Of a DNA stretch of 32,000 nt, positions 2,223 through 27,342 are shown piece after piece. The position numbers were made by a program, and so were the translations under genes. The stretch is from Nitrososphaera viennensis EN76 (GTDB taxonomy: Archaea; Thermoproteota; Nitrososphaeria; Nitrososphaerales; Nitrososphaeraceae): the NCBI RefSeq assembly GCF_000698785.1, contig NZ_CP007536.1, positions 2,250,001-2,282,000 on the forward strand. The letters are read 5' to 3'. Below the pieces are notes generated by a model, which saw only the letters and a list, made by a program, of their open reading frames with translations, had not been told where the DNA came from and did not search any database. The first letter of the stretch is position 1; the number at the start of each line of letters is the position of its first letter.

Positions 2223-3101
2223 ATGTCGTATACCCCGACAGGCAGTTTTAACATACTGAAACGCCTCCAATTTGTTGAAGAAAGTACTTTTGGCCAAGCC
2301 CCTGCCTCTCCGTCGTTTGTGCTTGCAGGCCACAACGTCTCGCTGCGCGAGACCACCGAGGTCTCGGCGCAAAAGTACCGGGACCTCGGGAGCAGGGACC
2401 TGTACAAGATGCTAAAGACGGGCGAGATGTACTCCTTTGAGCTGCGCTACCAGCCGATAAACACCGCCCTTCTCAGGTACGGGACAGAGCTTCCAAACGG
2501 CGCTGGCACGATAGAAAAGTCGCTTGCGTTTGTCTACACGCAGCTCGTCAACGGGACGGAGACGTGGCACAGGTTCCTCGGCGCAAGGACAGACCAGGTG
2601 GAAATCGAGGTGACAGAGGCGTCCGTGCAGGTGTCGCACCGCTTTTTGTGCAAGGACATACCCGCCACCGTCACCGCAGACCCGTTCACCACGCCCACGT
2701 ACGCCGGCGCCGACACGTCGGCCCCGTACACGGGTGTCTCTTCCGGCTCCAACCCGCTTACCATAAACTCGGAGACGTACGACACGCCGCGCTTCAAGGT
2801 GTCGGTCAACTGGAACCTGGACGTCGTCAAGCCAAACGGCGAGGTGCAGGCCAAGTTCATCCTGCCCACAAACCGCGACATCACAGTCGAGTTTGACACG
2901 TGGGTCAAGGACGACGTGCTTCGCGCAGACACCAAGTCGCTTGCGGCAAGGTCTGCCAGCTACACCATTGCGCCCGGCAAGTCGCTCACGTTCACGGACC
3001 TGTACCTTGCAAAGCAGAGCAAGAACAACGACGCAAACGACGCCAAGGTCCTTATCGAGACGCTGACCGGGACTGCCAGGTCGATGTCGGTGAGCCCGTG
3101 A
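2223..3101 (+). CDS. Major virion structural protein, best guess major tail (tube) protein. A capsid role is not excluded.
   Basis: 292-aa ORF. It is immediately followed by the overlapping chaperone pair and then the tape measure gene, which is the canonical order major tail, G/GT, TMP. The ATG lies 35 nt after the motif at 2188. Confidence 0.5.
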   Translation: MSYTPTGSFNILKRLQFVEESTFGQAPASPSFVLAGHNVSLRETTEVSAQKYRDLGSRDLYKMLKTGEMYSFELRYQPINTALLRYGTELPNGAGTIEKSLAFVYTQLVNGTETWHRFLGARTDQVEIEVTEASVQVSHRFLCKDIPATVTADPFTTPTYAGADTSAPYTGVSSGSNPLTINSETYDTPRFKVSVNWNLDVVKPNGEVQAKFILPTNRDITVEFDTWVKDDVLRADTKSLAARSASYTIAPGKSLTFTDLYLAKQSKNNDANDAKVLIETLTGTARSMSVSP

Positions 3102-14608: not shown

Positions 14609-14747
14609 ACGAACTGCAAAAATGTTACATTGATAATATGTGTTATCCCGTTTCTAATCTTATAGAAATCTCGCGCAATTCCCTCAAGACGCTGCCTTGA
14701 GCCGTTTCTGCAAAAACAATATCAACTACGTAATATATCGTCTGAGC

Positions 14748-15279: not shown

Positions 15280-15960
15280 TTAGAAGCCCATGCCTCCCAT
15301 CGGACCTTCTGATGTCTCATTGCCTGGCGGCGGTTGCATCATTTGGCCGCCTGGACCGCCAAACATCCCGCCATGCGGACCCATCATCATGCCTCCGTGC
15401 ATGGCCCCAAGCTGGGCAAGCGGTATTGCCTGAGATGCAAGGACGCTTCCGTCGCCGGCATCGACGATCACCGAGTGTAACATTTCGTTGTTTATGTCAA
15501 CTACTATGACGCTGTATACCAAGAAGCCCTGCACTACATCAAGGTGACCTACAACTGCCGTTCCGTTGGCCTGAGTTTCTGCCGTAGCGACTGCTTCGCT
15601 GAGCGTTACGTTCAGGTTTTCAGTCAAGAAGTCTTTTATCGCTTGCTTGACGTCTATTGTGCCTGTTATCTGACCCGGTTGACCTAGCTGCTGACCTTCA
15701 GGTTCTGGAACCGTCTGGTTGCCATTATCCTGTATCGTCGTTATTCCGTTGTTGTTGTTATTATTTACAAAAGCAACCGTCTGGGTGCTATTGCCGCCCG
15801 GAGCTGTTTGGTTTCCACCTGGACTCGTCTGGTTTCCTTCCGGGCTGGCCAGGTCTTGCGCGAACGCAGCCGGCGCCACAATAGCCGGCGATGCAACTGC
15901 AAAGCCCAAAGCCAACAGGGAAAGAATAAACGCTGTTTTATTTCCTGTTAGACTTGACAT
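15280..15960 (-). CDS. Secreted/anchored PepSY-like domain protein with a sequon-rich linker and a Met/Gly/His-rich C-terminal tail
   Basis: N-terminus MSSLTGNKTAFILSLLALGFAVAS. Linker GNQTSPGGNQTAPGGNSTQT. PepSY-like core ...VVGHLDVVQGFLVYSVIVVDINNEMLHSVIVDAGDGSVL. Tail MHGGMMMGPHGGMFGGPGGQMMQPPPG...PMGGMGF. Confidence 0.75.
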   Translation of the reverse strand: MSSLTGNKTAFILSLLALGFAVASPAIVAPAAFAQDLASPEGNQTSPGGNQTAPGGNSTQTVAFVNNNNNNGITTIQDNGNQTVPEPEGQQLGQPGQITGTIDVKQAIKDFLTENLNVTLSEAVATAETQANGTAVVGHLDVVQGFLVYSVIVVDINNEMLHSVIVDAGDGSVLASQAIPLAQLGAMHGGMMMGPHGGMFGGPGGQMMQPPPGNETSEGPMGGMGF

Positions 15961-16009
15961 TACCCAAATGTAGCAGCCATGGCTTTAAAGGCTTGAGCAA
16001 AAATGATAG

Positions 16010-16022
16010 GTAACGCGGTTAT
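16010..16022. promoter_or_regulatory. Palindromic operator candidate GTAAC-GCG-GTTAT
   Basis: It matches RTAAC-N3-GTTAY. It lies about 63 nt upstream of the start at 15960, just beyond the TTTAAA box at 15984-15989. Confidence 0.5.
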
Positions 16023-16143
16023 CGGGAATATGTAAGGTAGAATCAACGGCGTTAAGTTTTCTGGTAATTCTATATTGAAAAAATCTCTGATATTTTGAGA
16101 TCAAAAATAAGAAAATCTGGAAAAAATGAGGTGGCGTCAGGGA

Positions 16144-16644
16144 TCAGGACTGAGTTCCCTGAGGTCCTGATTCAGGAGCAGCGTGGTTCCACGAGCCGTA
16201 CCCGTGAAATCCGTGGCCCTTGAAGCCATGTCCGCCAAACATGCCAATTCCGCGGCCGCCGCCCATCTGGATGTCGCCGGACGTGTGGAGCACTTGGCCG
16301 TTTCCTGCGTCAACTACAACTATGTGTCCTACTTGTGTATCAGCGTTGACTACAAAGAACTTGTAGGCGAGGTAGCCCTGAACAACGCCAAGGTTGCCTG
16401 ATACTATCGTGCCATTCGCAACCTGCGCAGCAGCCGTGTCTGCGGCAGCCGTAAACGACACCTTCAGATTGTCCTTGATGTAGTTCTGCACGGTTCCCTT
16501 GACATCCACCGAGCCTTTGATGCTTGGGGCGGTTTTGTTCTGCTCCTGAGCGAACGCGGTCCCTGCAGCCAGCGCGGTTATCAGCACTGCCGCTACTGCA
16601 ACGGCTGGGATCACGACGCTCTTTCGAAGGTATGGGTTTCCCAT
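16144..16644 (-). CDS. Secreted PepSY-like domain protein with a Gly/His-rich tail
   Basis: It has a signal-like N-terminus. Core ...VSGNLGVVQGYLAYKFFVVNADTQVGHIVVVDAGNGQVL. Tail MGGGRGIGMFGGHGFKGHGFHGYGSWNH. Confidence 0.75.
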   Translation of the reverse strand: MGNPYLRKSVVIPAVAVAAVLITALAAGTAFAQEQNKTAPSIKGSVDVKGTVQNYIKDNLKVSFTAAADTAAAQVANGTIVSGNLGVVQGYLAYKFFVVNADTQVGHIVVVDAGNGQVLHTSGDIQMGGGRGIGMFGGHGFKGHGFHGYGSWNHAAPESGPQGTQS

Positions 16645-16693
16645 GATTGGTGTAGTTGGAAAAATAGTTTTAACCCTTCTTTACAAGTGATAG

Positions 16694-16706
16694 GTAACAA
16701 AGTTAC
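16694..16706. promoter_or_regulatory. Palindromic operator candidate GTAAC-AAA-GTTAC
   Basis: Perfect inverted repeat, about 62 nt upstream of the start at 16644. Confidence 0.5.
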
Positions 16707-16909
16707 TACAGTTAAAATGATGATGTTTCATATGCAGACACTGCTCACTTTGAGAGGCGTGTTTTTCCATCAGATTCAGAAACGAATGATTCAGAAACCT
16801 GATGATTTAAAAAAAGAAAAAGAGAAAGTGCCCACCCGTTGTCATTTGCTTGACTTTTGTGGGCCCTCTGTCTGTGTGTGCAAGATTCGTTGCTTTGGTC
16901 CTTGCTTTC

Positions 16910-17185
16910 TTAACCAGTCATGTTTCCAGTCTGGTTTCCGCCAGTCATGTTTCCACCCGGAAGCGGGAACGGAGGAGCTGGAGGAGTTGCCTGGTCTGGA
17001 TTTGCTTCAAAAGCCGTCTGGGTCATGTTTCCAGTCACGTTTCCAGGCGGCGTCACGTTTCCACCCGGAGGAGTCACGTTTTGCGCGAAAGCGACTGGTG
17101 TTGCTATCGCCACTGATGCGACGGCAAAACCTGCAGCCAGCAACGCAAGTACGAACGCCCTTTTGTTTCCTGTTAGACTTGACAT
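16910..17185 (-). CDS. Truncated paralog with signal anchor plus NxT-repeat linker only and no PepSY core (possible gene remnant)
   Basis: The start is taken at the MSSLTGNKRAF Met (17185), by analogy with its paralogs and the TTTAAA box at 17211-17216. The product is 91 aa with 7 N-x-T sequons. Confidence 0.5.
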   Translation of the reverse strand: MSSLTGNKRAFVLALLAAGFAVASVAIATPVAFAQNVTPPGGNVTPPGNVTGNMTQTAFEANPDQATPPAPPFPLPGGNMTGGNQTGNMTG

Positions 17186-17236
17186 CGCTGAAATGTTGCG
17201 CAATACTGGCTTTAAAGGCTTGAGCAAAAATGATAG

Positions 17237-17249
17237 GTAGCGAGATTAT
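17237..17249. promoter_or_regulatory. Degenerate operator copy GTAGC-GAG-ATTAT
   Basis: It occupies the same position relative to the start at 17185 as the site at 16010. It lies next to a 33-nt block identical to the 15960 promoter. Confidence 0.35.
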
Positions 17250-17442
17250 CCGGAACATTTAGAGCAAAATTTGCAAATACTATTTTGGCTGTGAAATGTC
17301 TGGAAGCTCTCTTTGAACTTCTTTCTGTTTAGCGCCACTCGCAGGCATTTTTTCGCAATCAACGCAATCATAGGTCTGACATGCCCTGTCATATCTAGAA
17401 ATGGGTAATTTGAAAAAAGAGATAAAGGAGGACGAAATCGCG

Positions 17443-18153
17443 TCAGAAAACGCCTCCGATGCCCAGGTCGCCCATAGGCGCTCCTTCCGAAGTGGTGAGT
17501 ACATTTCCTGTTCTCGGGTCGACGACTACCTGGAAGAGCATTCCATTGTTTACGTCTATCACGGTGATATTATACACCGGATTGCCCTGCATTATCTCAA
17601 AGCTGCCTGCAATTGCCGTGCCGTTGACAAACTGTCCTTCTGCAACGTCAGCAGCGTCCACCAGCGTCGCAGTCGCGTTTCCACTGTCTAGAAATTCCTT
17701 TCCTCCTTGACCACCAATCGTGCCTAAAGGCGTTCCTTCAGAGATGGCAAGTACAATTCCGCTGCTGGGGTCGATGATCACGCTGTAGGCAGTATCATTA
17801 CCAATGTTGGCCACTGTGGTGTTGTACACCAGGTAACCCTGCACTACATCAAGGTGACCTAGAATTACAGTTCCATTGACAACTTGATTCTCTGCTATAT
17901 CTGAAGCATCGACAAATGTTGCGTTCAGGTTTTCATTTAAAAAGTCCTTTGCTGCTTGTTGGGCATTTATGGAGCCAGTTATCTGAAGGGATGTCTGTGT
18001 GGCATTACCTCCTTCCGGACTGGCTGGCGGGACTTGCGCGGAAGCAAGAGGCATCATCACCACTACTGCTGTTGTACCCAGTGACGCAACCGCAAAGCCG
18101 ACCGCCAACAGGGCAGGAATAAACAATTTCTTGTTTCCTGTAAGACTTGACAT
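17443..18153 (-). CDS. Secreted/anchored protein with two PepSY-like domains
   Basis: N-terminus MSSLTGNKKLFIPALLAVGFAVAS. There are two copies of the ...G(H/S)(L/F)(D/E)(V/I)(V/M)QG(Y/N)(L/P)VYN(T/I)TV... core. Confidence 0.75.
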   Translation of the reverse strand: MSSLTGNKKLFIPALLAVGFAVASLGTTAVVVMMPLASAQVPPASPEGGNATQTSLQITGSINAQQAAKDFLNENLNATFVDASDIAENQVVNGTVILGHLDVVQGYLVYNTTVANIGNDTAYSVIIDPSSGIVLAISEGTPLGTIGGQGGKEFLDSGNATATLVDAADVAEGQFVNGTAIAGSFEIMQGNPVYNITVIDVNNGMLFQVVVDPRTGNVLTTSEGAPMGDLGIGGVF

Positions 18154-18202
18154 TACTACATTCTTGTAACTACAATTTTAAAGAATTGGGAAAAAAGAAT
18201 AG

Positions 18203-18215
18203 TTAAGAAAATTAC
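18203..18215. promoter_or_regulatory. Degenerate operator copy TTAAG-AAA-ATTAC
   Basis: It lies about 63 nt upstream of the start at 18153. It matches the extended site at 16689-16706 at 14 of 18 positions. Confidence 0.3.
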
Positions 18216-18244
18216 CGACACATCTGATAGAACCGTGGCAACTA

Positions 18245-18646
18245 CTATCTATTCTGCCCCGCGTTATTCGCAGGTTCGTCTTCGTCGAATTTCTTGTCAA
18301 TCTCTTCCTGCAGTTTCTTGTACCTGTCGTACTTTTTGGTCCACTTTGAAAGGACCAGCCACTGCCTTATGCCAATCCCAAGCCAGACTATTGATACTAT
18401 CCATGGCAGCTGCCTGAGAAACACCCTTTCCTGGTGTATTTCCCGGAATCCTCCCGGGCCAGGCATGAAAGGCTCCGTCAGGGCGTTTACAATCAGGAAC
18501 GTCAGGGGCGGCACTATCATTCCCGTCAGTACCATGACTATGAACAGCCTCTTTGTCCTGTTAAGCTCGAAAATTATGCCGTCTATTATCTTGAAGAGGT
18601 TCTCGCTCTTGTTGCTGTGGTGATGGTCCTTGCCTTCGTCAGACAA
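18245..18646 (-). CDS. Two-TM membrane protein downstream of the wHTH regulator
   Basis: 133 aa with two hydrophobic helices and a charged C-terminus. TTG start, 38 nt after the regulator's stop. Confidence 0.5.
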   Translation of the reverse strand: MSDEGKDHHHSNKSENLFKIIDGIIFELNRTKRLFIVMVLTGMIVPPLTFLIVNALTEPFMPGPGGFREIHQERVFLRQLPWIVSIVWLGIGIRQWLVLSKWTKKYDRYKKLQEEIDKKFDEDEPANNAGQNR

Positions 18647-18684
18647 CCCTCTGCTTCACCTCCGCTGCGCAGCCTGGAAACATT

Positions 18685-18984
18685 TCAATCATTTGCTGTA
18701 GTATCTCCCCTTGGAAACAGCTCTTCGTATGGCTCAAGGACGGCCCTGAGTATCTCCTTTCCCTTTTCCGACACGCTGTATTTTATTATCATCTTGCTCC
18801 CCCACGGTTCTTCTTTTCTGGTTATCATGCCCTTGTTGACCATCTCGTCAAGTATCTCCCTGTGCTTTGCGTTGTTGAGGCCACAGTAGCTCATGAGTTT
18901 ACTCTGGTTCAATTCTCCATGTTCATACAGCTTGAGTATGATGTCCTTTCTGATGTAGATCCTTTCTCGATATTCATGCACCAA
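18685..18984 (-). CDS. Small winged-helix transcription regulator (archaeal HTH_45-like)
   Basis: 99 aa. The pattern ...DIILKLYEHGELNQSKLMSYCGLNNAKHREILDEMVNKGMITRKE...KYSVSEKGKEIL fits small archaeal wHTH proteins. It is divergent from the ABC operon. Confidence 0.65.
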   Translation of the reverse strand: MVHEYRERIYIRKDIILKLYEHGELNQSKLMSYCGLNNAKHREILDEMVNKGMITRKEEPWGSKMIIKYSVSEKGKEILRAVLEPYEELFPRGDTTAND

Positions 18985-19076
18985 TTCAACTCATGCAATA
19001 ATTGCTTGTTCTCTTCATCCTGCATTGTCATCTTTCTATATAAATAATTGATCATGCTCTCTCCCTCAGAGACAAA

Positions 19077-19089
19077 ATAACAACGTTAT
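19077..19089. promoter_or_regulatory. Palindromic operator candidate ATAAC-AAC-GTTAT
   Basis: Perfect inverted repeat in the divergent region between the regulator and the ABC operon. Confidence 0.45.
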
Positions 19090-19134
19090 TCATGTAGATC
19101 GGAATGTCATCCTTGCGCCCTAAAAAGTACAAAG

Positions 19135-19147
19135 GTAACAATGTTAC
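19135..19147. promoter_or_regulatory. Palindromic operator candidate GTAAC-AAT-GTTAC
   Basis: Perfect inverted repeat 67 nt upstream of the ATG at 19202. The flank GTTACTTGTCATTTGTAAA resembles GTTACCTATCACTTGTAAA at the 16644 promoter. Confidence 0.5.
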
Positions 19148-19201
19148 TTGTCATTTGTAAATAACACTTATTACGAAATTTTCTTACATTTTTTTCTGGG
19201 T

Positions 19202-19594
19202 ATGGCAGTAAAAAGAAGAGTATTACATTACGCAGCAGCCGCTGCGACCGCGATTGGAGGCATACTGCACCTCATCCTTGCGCCAAACATGCTTGGATTC
19301 AACACCAATACGGGCCTGTTTTTCCTCATAGGCGGGATCGCCCAGGTCTTCTGGGTCGTACCGACGATAAGGAGGTGGGGCAAACCATGGTACGCGGTCG
19401 GCATTGGCGGCACGGCTGTCCTGGTGGCGGTATACTTTATCACAAGGGTGCCGGGCAACCCGATCACCGGCAGAGGAGGCGGCGTGAATCCGATGGCGAT
19501 TGCAGTCGAGGTTGCGCAGCTGGCGTTCATCGGACTGTGCATCGCGATTCTTGCAATGGCCGGGAAAAAGAAAGAGGAAGCAGGCAAAAAATGA
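19202..19594 (+). CDS. Four-TM membrane protein, first gene of the ABC operon
   Basis: 130 aa from the ATG at 19202, with four hydrophobic helices. Its stop overlaps the next start (ATGA at 19591-19594). Confidence 0.6.
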   Translation: MAVKRRVLHYAAAAATAIGGILHLILAPNMLGFNTNTGLFFLIGGIAQVFWVVPTIRRWGKPWYAVGIGGTAVLVAVYFITRVPGNPITGRGGGVNPMAIAVEVAQLAFIGLCIAILAMAGKKKEEAGKK

Positions 19595-20361
19595 CGCACC
19601 CTTATCATCATCATGATCCTTCTGCAAGGCCGGAATTCCATGAAGAAACAGGAGGTGCCGCGGACTTGCCCAGAGATATCGCGCTGGAAGCGAAGGACCT
19701 GTACAAGGTGTTTGGCTCGGGTGCCGGCAAAGTGGTGGCACTAAAGCACGCGACTTTTACAGTGAAAAAAGGCGAGTTTGTGGCCATAGTCGGGCCTTCA
19801 GGAAGCGGCAAGTCCACCCTGCTCAACCTCCTTGGAGCCATCGACAGGCCTACTTCGGGCAAAGTCATCATAAACGGAGTGGACATTTTCTCTCTCGGCG
19901 ACCAGGAAATAGCAACGATGAGGAACAAGCTCATCGGCTTTATCTTCCAGTCGTACAACCTGATAAACAGGACCACGGTCCTGAGAAACGTCGAGCTCCC
20001 TGCAATCGTGATGGAGATAGGCAAGGAGGAAAGGCGCAACAGGGCGCTAAAAGTGCTTGAAGTGCTGGGAATAAAGGACAAGGCAAACTTCAAGCCGACA
20101 AGCCTGAGCGGAGGGCAGCAGCAGCGAGTCGCCATCGCAAGGTCGCTGATGAACAATCCTGCAATCCTGCTTGCTGACGAGCCGACTGGAAACCTTGACA
20201 CCAAGACGGGAAACGAGGTTTTCGCGCTCTTGAAAATGCTGTCGCACAAATTCCGCATGACGATAATAATGGTGACGCACAACCCAGAGCTTGCAGCCGC
20301 CACCGACCGCGCCATCTACGTCAGGGATGGTGGCATCGAAAAGGAGGTCAGGAATTTATGA
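19591..20361 (+). CDS. ABC transporter ATP-binding protein, MacB/LolD-type
   Basis: Walker [10 protein letters not shown], signature [15 protein letters not shown], Walker [14 protein letters not shown]-loop VTHN. It also has a His-rich N-terminal extension, MTHPYHHHD. Confidence 0.9.
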
Positions 20362-22367
20362 TGAGGATGATGACGCCTGGCAGCAAAGTTAGCGCAGGCA
20401 CGCGGATCCTGTCACTCCTTTTAATCGGAATCCTGCTCTTTTCTCTTTCGTCGGTCGTCCTGACAGGCGCAAGCGCGCAGAGCGAGCTACCGCAACCATC
20501 CGAGAGGCAGATCATCGACGCGTCAGTGAGCGGCCCAGCGTTTCTCAACGCATATTGGATCGACCGCAGCACGAGCACCTCTGCTGCCGCCGATGTCCGA
20601 AAAGAAGTCGGGCCGGGAGATGGCGCGTCGACGCTGGCCGTGGTGATGGTGAACAGGGGGTTCTCTGCAATCACCGGTGTTACCGGCCTGCTTACCCTGC
20701 CAGCAGGATTCTCGTCCAATGGCAGGGCCTCTCCCGGTGGCACCGCCCTTGCCACCGTTGACAGCGTGGTGGACGCTGGCCAGACATTCATCCTGTACTT
20801 TGACCTGGATGTCTCTAACAGCACCCATGTCGGGACGTACAACACCGCGCTAAAGGTAGAATACCAGAGATTGTATGAAACTGGGAGCCCGCGGAGTAAC
20901 GAGGACACCATCCCGTTCAGGCTGACTGGCAAGGTCATCCTTGATCCTGTAGCAGTCACGCACAACCTGGTACCCGGCGTGTCAAACAACGTCGACATTG
21001 CGATAAGGAACACTGGCAGCGCGCCTGCAACCGGCGTGATAGTGTCGATAACTGGCATCAGCATAAACGGCGGATCGACAAGCACAATTGAGAGCTCTTC
21101 AGGCGCAACAATCAGGCCGCAGATAACCAACTTTGGGACAAACACCTTTACCCTCGGCACGATACCGGCAAGGTCAAACGCCACGCTCACCACAACCTTG
21201 TTTCCAAACATATCCGCGGGAGGAAACACTGCAGGCATACAACTGCAAATCACGTACAACGATGCGACAGGCAGCGCCAAGACCCTGACGCCGGCGATAG
21301 GGGTCATTGTGCTGCAGAATGCGCCCTCGGTCATTGGCGTGAGGGCTTCCTCGGGCGAGAACCAGACCGACAACCGCATAGTCGCCGGCAAGGCGGATAA
21401 CTTTGTCCTTGAAATCGCAAACAAGGGCACCAGCAGGATAAACAACGCGGTCGTGACCATGCAGTCCAGCTCTACTTCTCTGAACATACTTGGCGATTCA
21501 AAGTGGGCAGTAGACGAGATCGACCCCGGCTCGCAGGCCAAGCTTGAAACTCAGGTGTTTGCATCAACCTCGCTTATCGGCAACCCGGCAACGTTTGACG
21601 TGACCATCGACTACATCCTTGACGGGTCGCCCAAGACGGAAAAGTACGTCCTTGGGACATATGTTGACGGCGAAATAGTGCTCCGCGTCTACGGTTTATC
21701 GATCAACTACGTCGGAGCCACGCCTACCCTCGTCGGCAACATACTCAATGAGGGCAACACCGCGGCATTTTTCACGACAGTCGAGCTGGTGCAAGCACCT
21801 GGAGAAAGCCAGCCTGCTCAGCGGGGCAACAACTCTGCTGGCAGTAGCGGGCAGTCCAGCTCTCAATTTCCGCAACAGGGCGCTACCCCGGGCGGCGGGC
21901 AAAGGAACAACAATACTGCCGCCACCGCGCCTGCCCCGCAGTACCTTGGCGACCTGACGGCAAACTCGCCGCTTCCATTCAGCATACCGATGGACATCCC
22001 GCGCAACTCTGCAGCCGGCACGACGCATCCCGTGACGCTAAAAATAACCTACAAGGACAACCTGAGAAACTCCCACGAGTTTGTAACCAGCGCAAATGCC
22101 GTCTTGGCACAGCAACAGGCTTCTGCATCTCCTGCAGGGAGAATAATCCAGAACCAGAACGGGAGCCAATTCTTCATGATGGTAGTAATAATAATAGGCG
22201 TCGCAATAGCGGCCGCAGCAGCCGCCTTTTTCGTAGTCAAAAAGAGGCGCGCAAATGCAAAAAAGCTGAAAGAAGTTCAGGATGACGGCCCTGACAAGCG
22301 CAAGAACATCGAGGACATACTGGAAAACCCTGCTACGGATACAAAAGATCCGCCGACATCATCGTGA
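20358..22367 (+). CDS. Large surface protein with repeated CARDB/COG1361-like beta-sandwich modules, an N-terminal signal and a C-terminal TM anchor
   Basis: 669 aa. Recurrent ...(I/V)xNxG(x)xxAxxVxV... modules include DIAIRNTGSAPATGVIV, LEIANKGTSRINNAVVT and VMVNRGFSAITGVTG. There is a Gln/Ser/Gly low-complexity linker. The C-terminal helix FFMMVVIIIGVAIAAAAAAFFVV is followed by KKRR. Confidence 0.75.
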   Translation: MMRMMTPGSKVSAGTRILSLLLIGILLFSLSSVVLTGASAQSELPQPSERQIIDASVSGPAFLNAYWIDRSTSTSAAADVRKEVGPGDGASTLAVVMVNRGFSAITGVTGLLTLPAGFSSNGRASPGGTALATVDSVVDAGQTFILYFDLDVSNSTHVGTYNTALKVEYQRLYETGSPRSNEDTIPFRLTGKVILDPVAVTHNLVPGVSNNVDIAIRNTGSAPATGVIVSITGISINGGSTSTIESSSGATIRPQITNFGTNTFTLGTIPARSNATLTTTLFPNISAGGNTAGIQLQITYNDATGSAKTLTPAIGVIVLQNAPSVIGVRASSGENQTDNRIVAGKADNFVLEIANKGTSRINNAVVTMQSSSTSLNILGDSKWAVDEIDPGSQAKLETQVFASTSLIGNPATFDVTIDYILDGSPKTEKYVLGTYVDGEIVLRVYGLSINYVGATPTLVGNILNEGNTAAFFTTVELVQAPGESQPAQRGNNSAGSSGQSSSQFPQQGATPGGGQRNNNTAATAPAPQYLGDLTANSPLPFSIPMDIPRNSAAGTTHPVTLKITYKDNLRNSHEFVTSANAVLAQQQASASPAGRIIQNQNGSQFFMMVVIIIGVAIAAAAAAFFVVKKRRANAKKLKEVQDDGPDKRKNIEDILENPATDTKDPPTSS

Positions 22368-22381
22368 GTGTGTAATGTGCG

Positions 22382-23668
22382 ATGAAGATCGACGATATCT
22401 ACTACCTCTCGTTTGAAGCCCTCCGGGACAGGAAGGTCCGCTCCGCCCTGACGATACTGATGGTAGTGGTGGGAAGCTCCCTAATGGTCGCGCTCAACGG
22501 CCTCACCGCGGGATTTGGAGTGTTTATCGAAAAGCAGTTCAGCAACTTGGCAAGCAACGTCCTGACCCTGACCAACTCTGGCGGAGGCGGCACCTTTGTT
22601 GGTGGAGGCGGAGGAGGCGTTGTCATTTCTGCCGGCGGCCAGCCTCAATCGTCCGGCACCACGGTCACCTTTAACGCCGCGGTAGTCACAAAGGTAAAGA
22701 CACTGCCACTGGTAAACGATGTCATACCCACGTACACGGGGCGCGTCACGCTAGAGTCGCAGGGAAGAGAGAGGAGCGTTTCCGTGTTTTCAATAGATCC
22801 AGACAAGCTTGTGACCATAGCGCCCACGATACAGTACAAGGAAGGCGCAAAACTGGAGCAGAACGACCCCACTGGGATGGTGGTCGCGGACTTCATCGCC
22901 AATCCCGAAGGCCAGCCGACCCCGTTCCTCGTAGTCGGACAGACGGTCAAGGCGTCCTACTCGTTTGTGGATCCGTACACCGGCGAGGACAAGCAAGAGT
23001 CAAGGTCGTTCATAATAAGAGGCGTAATGGCCCAGACGGGAAACCCGAGCATCGACAGGGCCGTAATAATCAGCCCCGAGATCGCAAACTCGCTCCTGCA
23101 CAAGAATGGCAGGTACGACTCTCTCATGGTAGTCGTGCCGTCGCCGGACGACGTCAGCACGGTGCAGGATGAAATCCGGGTTATATATGGCAACGGCGTC
23201 GGCATCAGCACCCCGCAGGCAGTACTGCAGGCAAGGCAGCAATTTACGTCCGGCTTTAGCTCTTTTATCCTGGCAATAGCGCTGGTCGCGCTGGTCGTGG
23301 GCGCAGTCGGCATCGTGACAACTCTCTACACTTCTGTCACGGAGAGGATCCGCGAAATCGGCACAATAAAGGCGATAGGAGCTCTCAACAAGGACATACT
23401 CTTGATCTTCATAAGCGAAGCCTCGATAATAGGGGTAATTGGGGCCACGCTGGGGCTGGTGTTTGGAATTACAGCAGGGTCCCTCCTGACAGGCGTATTC
23501 AGTTTCGGGCCGAGAACGGGCGGTGGCCAAGATATATCGCCGGTTTACCTGCCATCGGACCTCCTGTACGTGTGGGGCCTGTCCGTAGGGCTGAGCCTGA
23601 TGGCCGGCATTTACCCTGCATGGAAGGCGTCGCGGCTTGAGCCCATCGTTGCTTTGAGGCGGGACTGA
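22382..23668 (+). CDS. ABC transporter permease, MacB/FtsX family
   Basis: 428 aa. The N-terminal TM (RSALTILMVVVGSSLMVAL) is followed by a large extracytoplasmic domain and three C-terminal TMs with the FtsX-type ...ERIREIGTIKAIGA... motif. Confidence 0.85.
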   Translation: MKIDDIYYLSFEALRDRKVRSALTILMVVVGSSLMVALNGLTAGFGVFIEKQFSNLASNVLTLTNSGGGGTFVGGGGGGVVISAGGQPQSSGTTVTFNAAVVTKVKTLPLVNDVIPTYTGRVTLESQGRERSVSVFSIDPDKLVTIAPTIQYKEGAKLEQNDPTGMVVADFIANPEGQPTPFLVVGQTVKASYSFVDPYTGEDKQESRSFIIRGVMAQTGNPSIDRAVIISPEIANSLLHKNGRYDSLMVVVPSPDDVSTVQDEIRVIYGNGVGISTPQAVLQARQQFTSGFSSFILAIALVALVVGAVGIVTTLYTSVTERIREIGTIKAIGALNKDILLIFISEASIIGVIGATLGLVFGITAGSLLTGVFSFGPRTGGGQDISPVYLPSDLLYVWGLSVGLSLMAGIYPAWKASRLEPIVALRRD

Positions 23669-26159: not shown

Positions 26160-26280
26160 ATTACAGTATGTGGCAGCCTATACTGATTTTAAACATTGCT
26201 GTCCGCAAGCCCAGTCTTGGGCACAAAAAGATCTTTGGTTTTTCTAAAATCCTGCCATAGATCTGCAAGCGTGTTTGCAA

Positions 26281-27342
26281 ATGTTGCAGCCTTGTCCAAC
26301 TCTTAAATACGATAATCTCGATAGTTATACTGTCTGGTTATTGGACGATCCTTTCGCTGTGGATGTCCAGCGTGGCAGTCCGACAGCAGCCGAAACCGCA
26401 AGGAGCATTAGCAGTAATACCCCTACTACTGTTACTAGCGTGTCAGAGGGCCTGAAGGCGGGCCAGAGGATAGCCAAGATTTCCGTGATAACGCTGGTCG
26501 CCATAGGCATAGCCGAGCTTGCAATGGGCCAGATAAGCGGGAGCATCGTCGCAACCGCAGACGGCATCGACTCGCTTTCTGACGCCATGATCTCGCTCAT
26601 CGTCTTTGTCGGGCTGTACCTGGCAAACCGGCCTGCAAACAAGAAATTCCCCTTTGGCTATTACAAGGTGGAAAGTTTCGCCGCGCTCATTGCGGCAATA
26701 GGAATGGTCGCCATAGGCGCGTTCATCCTGTTCCACTCGTACGAGTCGCTGATGGATCCGCACAGGATAGAGCAGCCAGTGCTGACTATGGTTGTCCTGG
26801 CAGCCGCCGGCGCCATATCACTCCATAGGGCGCTCCAGATGAGAAAGATAGCGCGAAAATACGACCTGCTTTCGCTCAAGACGGACGCCAAGAACTCGAT
26901 AAAAGACGGCTCGGCATCGATAATCGGTTTTGTCAGCGTGCTAGTCGCGTCGCAGTTTGGGTTCCTCCAGATGGACGCAATCGGCGGCATGATAATTGCA
27001 GGCTACATATTCTCTGTCGCGTATTTCTCGCTAAGGCAGTCATCACTCACGCTTGTTGACGCATGGCAGAACCCCGGCACTTCTGACAACGTCAAGCAGC
27101 TTATCGAGGCCAAGTTCCAGGCAGAGCCGGTGAGGGTCAGGTCGGTGTTCCTGAGGCCGACCGGCATGATGGCCCACGCAGAAGTGCACCTTGAAGTCGA
27201 CGGGGACAAAAAGCTGGCAGACTTTGAATCGCTGTCTCTTCAGGTCCAGAGCCTTATTCGCTCCAAGTTCCGGCTTATTGACAGGATATCCGTGATACCG
27301 CACCCGACGTCTTTTGACGGAAAAAAGGATACACGACTGTGA
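26281..27342 (+). CDS. Cation diffusion facilitator (CDF) family metal efflux transporter
   Basis: The TM core contains ...ADGIDSLSDAMISLIV...FPFGYYKVESFAALI..., and there is a C-terminal cytoplasmic domain. It has an unusual N-terminal extension of about 60 aa. The start is ATG at 26281 or TTG at 26275. Confidence 0.8.
   Translation: MLQPCPTLKYDNLDSYTVWLLDDPFAVDVQRGSPTAAETARSISSNTPTTVTSVSEGLKAGQRIAKISVITLVAIGIAELAMGQISGSIVATADGIDSLSDAMISLIVFVGLYLANRPANKKFPFGYYKVESFAALIAAIGMVAIGAFILFHSYESLMDPHRIEQPVLTMVVLAAAGAISLHRALQMRKIARKYDLLSLKTDAKNSIKDGSASIIGFVSVLVASQFGFLQMDAIGGMIIAGYIFSVAYFSLRQSSLTLVDAWQNPGTSDNVKQLIEAKFQAEPVRVRSVFLRPTGMMAHAEVHLEVDGDKKLADFESLSLQVQSLIRSKFRLIDRISVIPHPTSFDGKKDTRL

Follow-up and report, generated by a model that had tools for sequence, protein, structure and literature searches.

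The window examined here is a stretch of 32,000 nucleotides (nt) from the ammonia-oxidising archaeon Nitrososphaera viennensis EN76 (contig NZ_CP007536.1, positions 2,250,001 to 2,282,000), and the element in question is a short palindrome, RTAACNNNGTTAY (RTAAC-N3-GTTAY), which recurs in the promoter regions of one gene cluster within it. The cluster (Table 1) comprises a row of genes for secreted proteins of PepSY type, a gene for a small membrane protein with two transmembrane helices, here called mem133, a gene for a winged helix-turn-helix (wHTH) protein of 99 amino acids (aa), NVIE_027020, and a divergent operon encoding an ABC transporter. The proteins encoded around the wHTH gene are identical to AIC16967-16980. 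The gene calls of the initial annotation hold by Pfam for PepSY_A, PepSY_D, the wHTH protein and the operon, whereas PepSY_B scores below threshold and the product of 16910-17185 has no PepSY domain. We consider it likely that GTAAC-N3-GTTAC is the operator of the adjacent wHTH protein, and that the module regulates itself and controls genes for extracytoplasmic and membrane proteins.

Table 1. Genes, operator sites and promoter elements of the PepSY-wHTH-ABC cluster, in window coordinates. Site sequences at PepSY promoters are given in gene orientation.
Feature	Position	Strand	Remarks
PepSY_A (AIC16969)	15280..15960	-	Secreted; PepSY by Pfam; Met/His/Gly-rich C-terminal tail (MHGGMMMGPHGGMFGG...)
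TATA box TTTAAA of PepSY_A	15984..15989	-	20-21 nt past palindrome, about 25 nt before ATG
Degenerate proximal site CTATCATTTTTGC	15997..16009	-	Abuts the PepSY_A palindrome; fits the cross-genus consensus sTwwC-AwT-gGTnA
Palindrome ATAAC-CGC-GTTAC, perfect	16010..16022		Distal operator of PepSY_A promoter; 49 nt to ATG at 15960
PepSY_B (AIC16970 = NVIE_026980)	16144..16644	-	Secreted; PepSY-like (sub-threshold Pfam); His/Gly-rich tail
Degenerate proximal site CTATCACTTGTAA of PepSY_B	16681..16693	-	
Palindrome GTAAC-AAA-GTTAC, perfect	16694..16706		Distal operator of PepSY_B promoter; 49 nt to ATG at 16644
C91, 91-aa truncated paralog	16910..17185	-	Signal peptide and promoter common to PepSY_A and PepSY_D; no Pfam domain
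Decayed copy ATAATCTCGCTAC	17237..17249		2 mismatches; 51 nt to ATG at 17185
PepSY_D (AIC16972 = NVIE_027000)	17443..18153	-	Secreted; two PepSY domains
Decayed copy GTAATTTTCTTAA	18203..18215		3 mismatches; 49 nt to ATG at 18153
mem133, 133 aa, two transmembrane helices	18245..18646	-	Found only in ammonia-oxidising archaea; no Pfam family; directly downstream of wHTH gene
wHTH NVIE_027020 (AIC16974), 99 aa	18685..18984	-	HTH_45; UniProt 'ArnR1-like wHTH'; TTG or GTG start
Palindrome ATAAC-AAC-GTTAT, perfect	19077..19089		30 nt upstream of the wHTH TTTATATA box (19039-19046)
TATA-like TTTTTAGG	19119..19126	-	8 nt from the 19135 palindrome; spacing typical of wHTH/mem133 promoters in other genera
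Palindrome GTAAC-AAT-GTTAC, perfect	19135..19147		Both flanks also conserved in L001
Degenerate proximal site TTGTCATTTGTAA of ABC-operon promoter	19148..19160	+	Followed by TATA-like CTTATTAC (19167-19174)
DUF7475-ABC operon, four genes	19202..23668	+	
DUF7475 protein, four transmembrane helices	19202-19594	+	Pfam
ABC ATPase (ABC_tran)	19591-20361	+	His-rich N-terminus
Exported NPCBM_assoc/CARDB protein NVIE_027040	20358-22367	+	Pfam
MacB/FtsX permease (MacB_PCD+FtsX) NVIE_027050	22382-23668	+	Pfam

An exact search of the window returns RTAAC-N3-GTTAY at the four perfect sites of Table 1 and nowhere else, and all four are intergenic, in promoter regions of the cluster. Shuffles that preserve dinucleotide composition contain 0.02 matches on average, and none of 100 shuffles reached four, so that the over-representation and intergenic placement described in the initial annotation are confirmed. 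The two degenerate copies that it had added at 17237 and 18203 fare less well: they do lie at the equivalent position of their promoters, but with 2 and 3 mismatches they are at chance level and decayed. A search that tolerates 2 mismatches finds 28 matches in the window where 22 are expected, so that these copies can be recognised by position and not by sequence statistics. A half-palindrome beside the start of the multicopper oxidase gene described below (14616-14628, GCAAAAATGTTAC) was rejected as a further site, since it has 2 mismatches, again chance level, and lies at the wrong distance from the start.

The sites stand in a rigid geometry relative to the promoters. Exactly 49 nt separate the end of the palindrome from the ATG in 23 distinct effector promoters, whose genes encode proteins that are secreted or anchored in the membrane and which include the two intact PepSY promoters of the window; the genes at this distance include those for secreted PepSY, cupredoxin and SRPBCC proteins. 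The 62-67 nt given in the initial annotation had been counted from the distal end of the site; counted from the proximal end, the distance is 49 nt for the genes starting at 15960 and 16644 and 54 nt for the one starting at 19202. In the effector promoters the TATA box begins 20-21 nt past the palindrome, and its spacing to the ATG points to leaderless mRNAs; for PepSY_A it suggests a leaderless or near-leaderless mRNA. The 13 nt between palindrome and TATA box are occupied by a conserved but degenerate second site, sTwwC-AwT-gGTnA. The promoters of the wHTH and mem133 genes have a single perfect palindrome, which lies 7-8 nt before the TATA box and immediately upstream of the B recognition element (BRE). 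The BRE-adjacent position therefore holds a perfect site in wHTH and mem133 promoters and a degenerate proximal site in effector promoters. The flanking sequences that had been pointed out as conserved (GTTACCTATCACTTGTAAA, GTTACTTGTCATTTGTAAA, GTTACCTATCATTTTTGC and GCTACCTATCATTTTTGC) are all present as described, and the degenerate proximal site explains their conservation, which is thus not due to paralogous duplication only. The palindrome at 19135 is predicted from its surroundings to act both ways, as the distal site of the DUF7475-ABC operon on the forward strand and as the BRE-adjacent site of a wHTH promoter on the reverse strand.

Since the palindrome could also pair with itself in RNA, as a hairpin with a 5-bp stem and a 3-nt loop, we considered a role in RNA, for instance as a terminator or an element of transcript stability past the wHTH gene. 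In many genomes one copy does lie just past the wHTH stop codon, and the change from GTAAC to GTACC found in some loci preserves pairing. That copy, however, is followed 8 nt on by a TATA box and then by the mem133 start. Most of the copies are placed ahead of the TATA box of a leaderless gene or between two divergent promoters and hence are not transcribed, and the stem sequence is fixed, not freely compensated. The window was also scanned with Rfam and for tRNAs, with no match. We regard an RNA element as extremely improbable.

The sites are conserved in the orthologous promoters of related genomes. The comparison covered 135 loci, of which 55 are genome loci (one genome per species scanned, 505 kb) and 80 are independent metagenome loci (277 kb), from Nitrososphaera, Nitrosocosmicus, Nitrosopolaris, Nitrosotenuis, Nitrosarchaeum, Nitrosopumilus and Nitrosotalea; individual loci are numbered with an L. 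The 55 genome loci contain 44 perfect sites, against 1-7 in shuffles, and a perfect GTAAC-N3-GTTAC is present in 73 of the 80 metagenome loci at the same offsets from the wHTH gene. In nearly all loci the wHTH gene is directly followed by a mem133 homolog, and PepSY genes and the ABC operon are often found nearby. Sites in the module's own promoters, which precede the start of the wHTH gene by about 50-310 nt, lie in the spacer between wHTH and mem133 genes (at about +293 to +338), or occupy both places, were found in 25 of the 27 genome loci with an N38 recognition helix and in 73 of 80 metagenome loci. In the Nitrosopumilaceae loci L012, L021 and L024, an open reading frame (ORF) for a Cys-rich, zinc-ribbon-like protein of 55-66 aa begins 35-55 nt past the palindrome and before the wHTH gene, and is probably the first gene of the wHTH operon there. 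A look-up of exact-sequence clusters of the Nitrosopumilus orthologs for N. maritimus locus tags returned hypothetical proteins only.

Nearly all of the sites lie 15-160 nt upstream of the starts of recurrent gene families. Counted as site-sides by the family downstream, these are mem133 (69), PepSY (51), wHTH (27), membrane-anchored SRPBCC (11), cupredoxin (4) and DoxX (3); ABC/DUF7475 operons and small membrane or zinc-ribbon proteins also occur. This range of targets bears on the possibility that the repeats are leftovers of a tandem duplication of PepSY promoters, with a palindrome that has no regulatory role. The promoters and signal peptides of PepSY_A, C91 and PepSY_D are indeed clearly paralogous, with near-identical flanks (CTATCATTTTTGCTCAAGCCTTTAAAG). 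Nevertheless, the palindrome precedes genes that are not homologous to one another (DUF7475/ABC, wHTH, mem133, cupredoxin, SRPBCC and DoxX), and in the C91 and PepSY_D promoters it is the palindrome that has decayed and the flanks that are retained. The palindrome is also kept across genera in which the flanks have diverged, which largely refutes the duplication reading, and we give it very little weight.

The protein that we propose as the binder of these sites is a minimal wHTH protein. It matches Pfam HTH_45 (PF14947) with 29.3 bits against a cut-off of 25.5, and most of its homologs carry a precomputed PF14947 assignment, whereas its match to MarR (PF01047) is marginal (24.8 bits against 24.6) and PadR (PF03551) gives no Pfam match at E <= 0.01. 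The AlphaFold (AF2) model, with a predicted local distance difference test score (pLDDT) of 88, has helices 1 and 2, a recognition helix at residues 38-50, a wing and helix 4. A Foldseek search with this model retrieved AspA (4rs8) as the best match (TM-scores 0.63/0.73, 23% identity), followed by MarR-family proteins, LmrR/PadR and Rv3488; the MarR matches cover the wHTH core only (TMt 0.40-0.52). By sequence, no solved structure is a significant match to the wHTH protein (best E = 0.067). The C-terminal EPYEELFPR is invariant, and the protein probably binds its operator as a homodimer. We would like to note two features at its start. The TTG start is conserved, with an in-frame stop just upstream, and the leader ATTGAGTnAAATTGGT (18985-19031 on the reverse strand of the window) is conserved in many loci; and an ORF of 39 codons that begins at 19031 and is conserved between N. 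viennensis and L001 overlaps the wHTH start in another frame.

The strongest available argument that this protein reads the palindrome is that all sites of a genome change together with its recognition helix. In about 98 loci, a helix with CGLN followed by N/H-x-K/M (N38/K40) is accompanied by the half-site GTAAC. Where the helix instead reads S/P/A-V-R (R40), in L013, L017, L078, L081, L117 and L123, the half-site is GTACC/GGTAC at all three promoter positions of each genome; a helix with L-x-K (L38), in L027, L032, L033, L035 and a paralog clade, goes with TTAAC-N3-GTTAA, and one with I-I-T, in L028, with CTAAC-N3-GTTAG. The members of that paralog clade (L037-L050) are 46-50% identical to the wHTH protein and are encoded convergently to an operon of cupredoxin and mem133-like genes, and perfect copies of TTAAC-N3-GTTAA occur at about -230 to -285 and about +1180 to +1235. 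In four of the GTACC loci (L013, L017, L078 and L081), which probably form a clade, a conserved cytoplasmic protein of 131-139 aa without a Pfam family is a predicted target, encoded 49 nt downstream of the variant palindrome.

These observations also bear on whether the palindrome is a genuine operator bound by some other factor, either an HTH_45 paralog or an unrelated regulator whose gene lies elsewhere, with wHTH and mem133 as mere members of the regulon. The paralogs of the wHTH protein in ammonia-oxidising archaea have very similar operators, and their motif, TTAAC-N3-GTTAA, is resembled by the degenerate proximal sites of the PepSY promoters (e.g., TTAACAATGGTGA), so that a further protein may have a role at these promoters as well. 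A search of the window for TTAAC-N3-GTTAA itself found one match with 1 mismatch, which is chance level. Yet the half-site tracks residues 38 and 40 of this particular wHTH protein, in all sites of a genome at once, and the site is tied to the wHTH-mem133 pair in more than 100 loci, including the promoter of the wHTH gene itself. We therefore think another binder unlikely and retain the adjacent wHTH protein as the candidate. The proposal of the initial annotation that the small divergent wHTH protein is an autoregulated operator binder thus gains support from conservation, promoter geometry and covariation between helix and half-site.

Its account of the module had passed over the membrane protein encoded at 18245-18646, which is the obligate conserved partner. 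In mem133 homologs the cytoplasmic N-terminal helix and the segment after the second transmembrane helix are strongly conserved and the outer loop is variable; the conserved cytoplasmic segments read NLFKIMDGIIxQLNKTK and SKWTKKYDRYK. The protein of the window has a His-rich N-terminus. Searches of mem133 against Pfam and NCBIfam gave noise-level matches only, with no detectable protease or anti-sigma domain, and no fusion of wHTH and mem133 was found among the 120 of 214 mem133 homologs listed, which are 119-180 aa long and have no Pfam domain. We propose that mem133 is a signalling partner that modulates the activity of the wHTH protein. Separately, the loci whose wHTH protein has a CGMNN helix (L003, L052, L055, L077, L085 and L091) share a perfect palindrome of another sequence, ATATC-AAA-GATAT, which recurs downstream of the mem133 gene at about +555 to +760, counted from the start of the wHTH gene.

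Several points weigh against this reading of the module and its regulon. Binding of the sites by the wHTH protein is a prediction, which draws on over-representation, conservation, geometry and covariation, and the covariation may amount to perhaps two or three independent events, since the loci with R40 probably form one clade and those with L38 another. Two of the four paralogous promoters of the PepSY cluster, those of C91 and PepSY_D, hold decayed sites; of the single regulon of four PepSY genes and the ABC operon that had been suggested, the core link stands, with intact sites in only two of the four PepSY-cluster promoters. The palindrome at 19077 has no conserved counterpart in the closest relative, L001, and we therefore treat it as an auxiliary site of uncertain function. 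The link between mem133 and the wHTH protein is drawn from synteny and conserved cytoplasmic segments, not from a fusion, homology or a structure. Finally, the count of sites in N. viennensis, and with it the size of the regulon and the background density, refers to the 32-kb window.

We suggest the following mode of action. The wHTH protein and mem133 would form a module that is conserved throughout the ammonia-oxidising archaea and regulates itself. In the window it would control the two PepSY promoters with intact sites as well as the DUF7475-ABC-CARDB-MacB operon, and elsewhere also cupredoxins, SRPBCC proteins and DoxX. At effector promoters the perfect distal site would load the wHTH protein cooperatively onto the weak BRE-adjacent proximal site, and the filled proximal site may then help to recruit transcription factor B (TFB) and the TATA-binding protein (TBP) and so activate transcription, with mem133 modulating the activity of the wHTH protein as a partner switch. 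Proteins of MarR/PadR type are more often repressors, for which reason activation is favoured only slightly over repression. PepSY_B, with an intact site, is expressed above PepSY_D, with a decayed one (6.9 vs 3.8), which is weak support for activation, and the activators ArnR and ArnR1 bind inverted repeats upstream of the BRE (PMC10117864).

As to the signal, copper or another envelope metal is a possible input, which we would place somewhat below an even chance. The PepSY targets have His/Met/Gly-rich tails in every genus, plastocyanin-type cupredoxins are targets in four loci, and the paralog module adjoins a cupredoxin gene. In the window, both mem133 and the ABC ATPase are His-rich at the N-terminus, and the multicopper oxidase and cation efflux genes described below lie nearby. 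Under copper limitation of N. viennensis, the four genes of the cluster that were mapped were significantly up, with log2 fold changes of +1.34 for NVIE_026980, +0.83 for NVIE_027000, +0.72 for NVIE_027040 and +0.63 for NVIE_027050 (Reyes et al. 2020, PMC7785015); these values do not extend to NVIE_026970, 026990, 027010, 027020 and 027030. The same experiment, however, found 784 of 3180 genes up (PMC7785015), and because NVIE_027000 is mildly induced in spite of its decayed site, the copper response need not run through the operator. With about a quarter of the genes up and values for four genes of the cluster, a role in the handling of copper or envelope metals is reasonable but unproven. 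The published motifs of the copper-limitation response, TTCSGSMTTTGWACYANT (up) and RATTTAAABATAGATTTAAATAATAAS (Reyes et al. 2020, PMC7785015), differ in sequence from the palindrome, and identity with either was rejected; the up-motif has no match in the window even with 3 mismatches, the down-motif not having been searched. How copper genes are regulated was described by the same authors as an open question (Reyes et al. 2020, PMC7785015).

A bolder extension is tentative and, in our judgement, rather doubtful. It would make the soluble ArnR1-like wHTH protein and its two-helix membrane partner a split, membrane-tethered one-component module, and this module the class-wide and long-sought extracytoplasmic copper or metal regulator of the ammonia-oxidising archaea, with a readable code in which residue 40 (K/R) specifies base 4 (A/C) and residue 38 (N/L) base 1 (G/T) of the half-site.

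Some other features of the window deserve mention. PepSY_A and C91 contain runs of N-x-T/S sequons (GNQTSPGGNQTAPGGNST, GNVTPPGNVTGNMTQT), which suggests that as secreted proteins they may be heavily N-glycosylated. The PepSY cluster adjoins a gene for a two-domain, NirK-like multicopper oxidase (13586-14608, reverse strand; UniProt 'copper-containing nitrite reductase') that has no palindrome, and a few kb past the ABC operon lies a cation diffusion facilitator (CDF) efflux gene (26275-27342, forward strand), which is metal-related and likewise has no palindrome. The first ~11 kb of the window look like a block of proviral or tail-like-element genes, with a Phage_tube_2 tail tube protein (2223-3101, forward strand; E = 4e-24) amid large ORFs without a Pfam match.

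To our knowledge, almost no transcription factor of ammonia-oxidising archaea has a known binding site or regulon, and our literature search brought up no account of the motif, the regulator or the regulon. As a type, a local regulator that has a palindromic operator is nothing unusual; what gives this one its value is the class-wide conservation, the natural specificity variants and the scarcity of defined regulons in these archaea. It offers a concrete, testable pair of regulator and operator that extends from soil Nitrososphaera to marine Nitrosopumilus, and the natural variants predict the outcome of point mutations. Envelope targets such as the His/Met-rich PepSY proteins, the cupredoxins, the MacB-type exporter and the new membrane partner become approachable through their regulator, and the site could find use as a regulated promoter element in the emerging genetic tools of ammonia-oxidising archaea.

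Known systems resemble this one in part. AspA, the centromere-binding protein of the Sulfolobus plasmid pNOB8 and the best structural match, is likewise a minimal archaeal wHTH protein that binds a palindrome, but it serves plasmid partition beside ParA/ParB, whereas no such neighbours occur here and the sites are chromosomal promoter sites. With local regulators of the MarR/PadR type (LmrR-lmrCD, OhrR and the archaeal BldR) the module shares a palindrome and a divergent ABC exporter, and it would also share a small dimeric wHTH protein and autoregulation. In canonical MarR proteins of ~140-150 aa, however, dimerisation helices flank the wHTH domain at both termini, and the model of the 99-aa protein, with its four helices and wing, does not show them; unlike these regulators, the protein also has an obligate partner in the membrane. 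Extracytoplasmic function (ECF) sigma/anti-sigma pairs and BlaI-BlaR1 pairs consist of a DNA-binding protein and a small membrane protein that are encoded and regulated together, and a shared promoter motif marks their regulons; this is an analogy only, as there is no homology, and the partner role of mem133 is predicted. The closest counterparts in DNA-binding domain are ArnR and ArnR1, the membrane-bound one-component activators of the archaellin promoter in Sulfolobus acidocaldarius, whose domain is of the same type. Their inverted repeats lie upstream of the BRE (PMC10117864), as do the sites in the wHTH and mem133 promoters, and both systems have a link to the membrane. ArnR, however, is one polypeptide with a helix-turn-helix domain, a HAMP/sensor region and C-terminal transmembrane segments, whereas here a soluble wHTH protein is accompanied by a separate transmembrane gene that looks unrelated, and where ArnR targets the archaellum, the module would target secreted PepSY or cupredoxin proteins and an ABC exporter.

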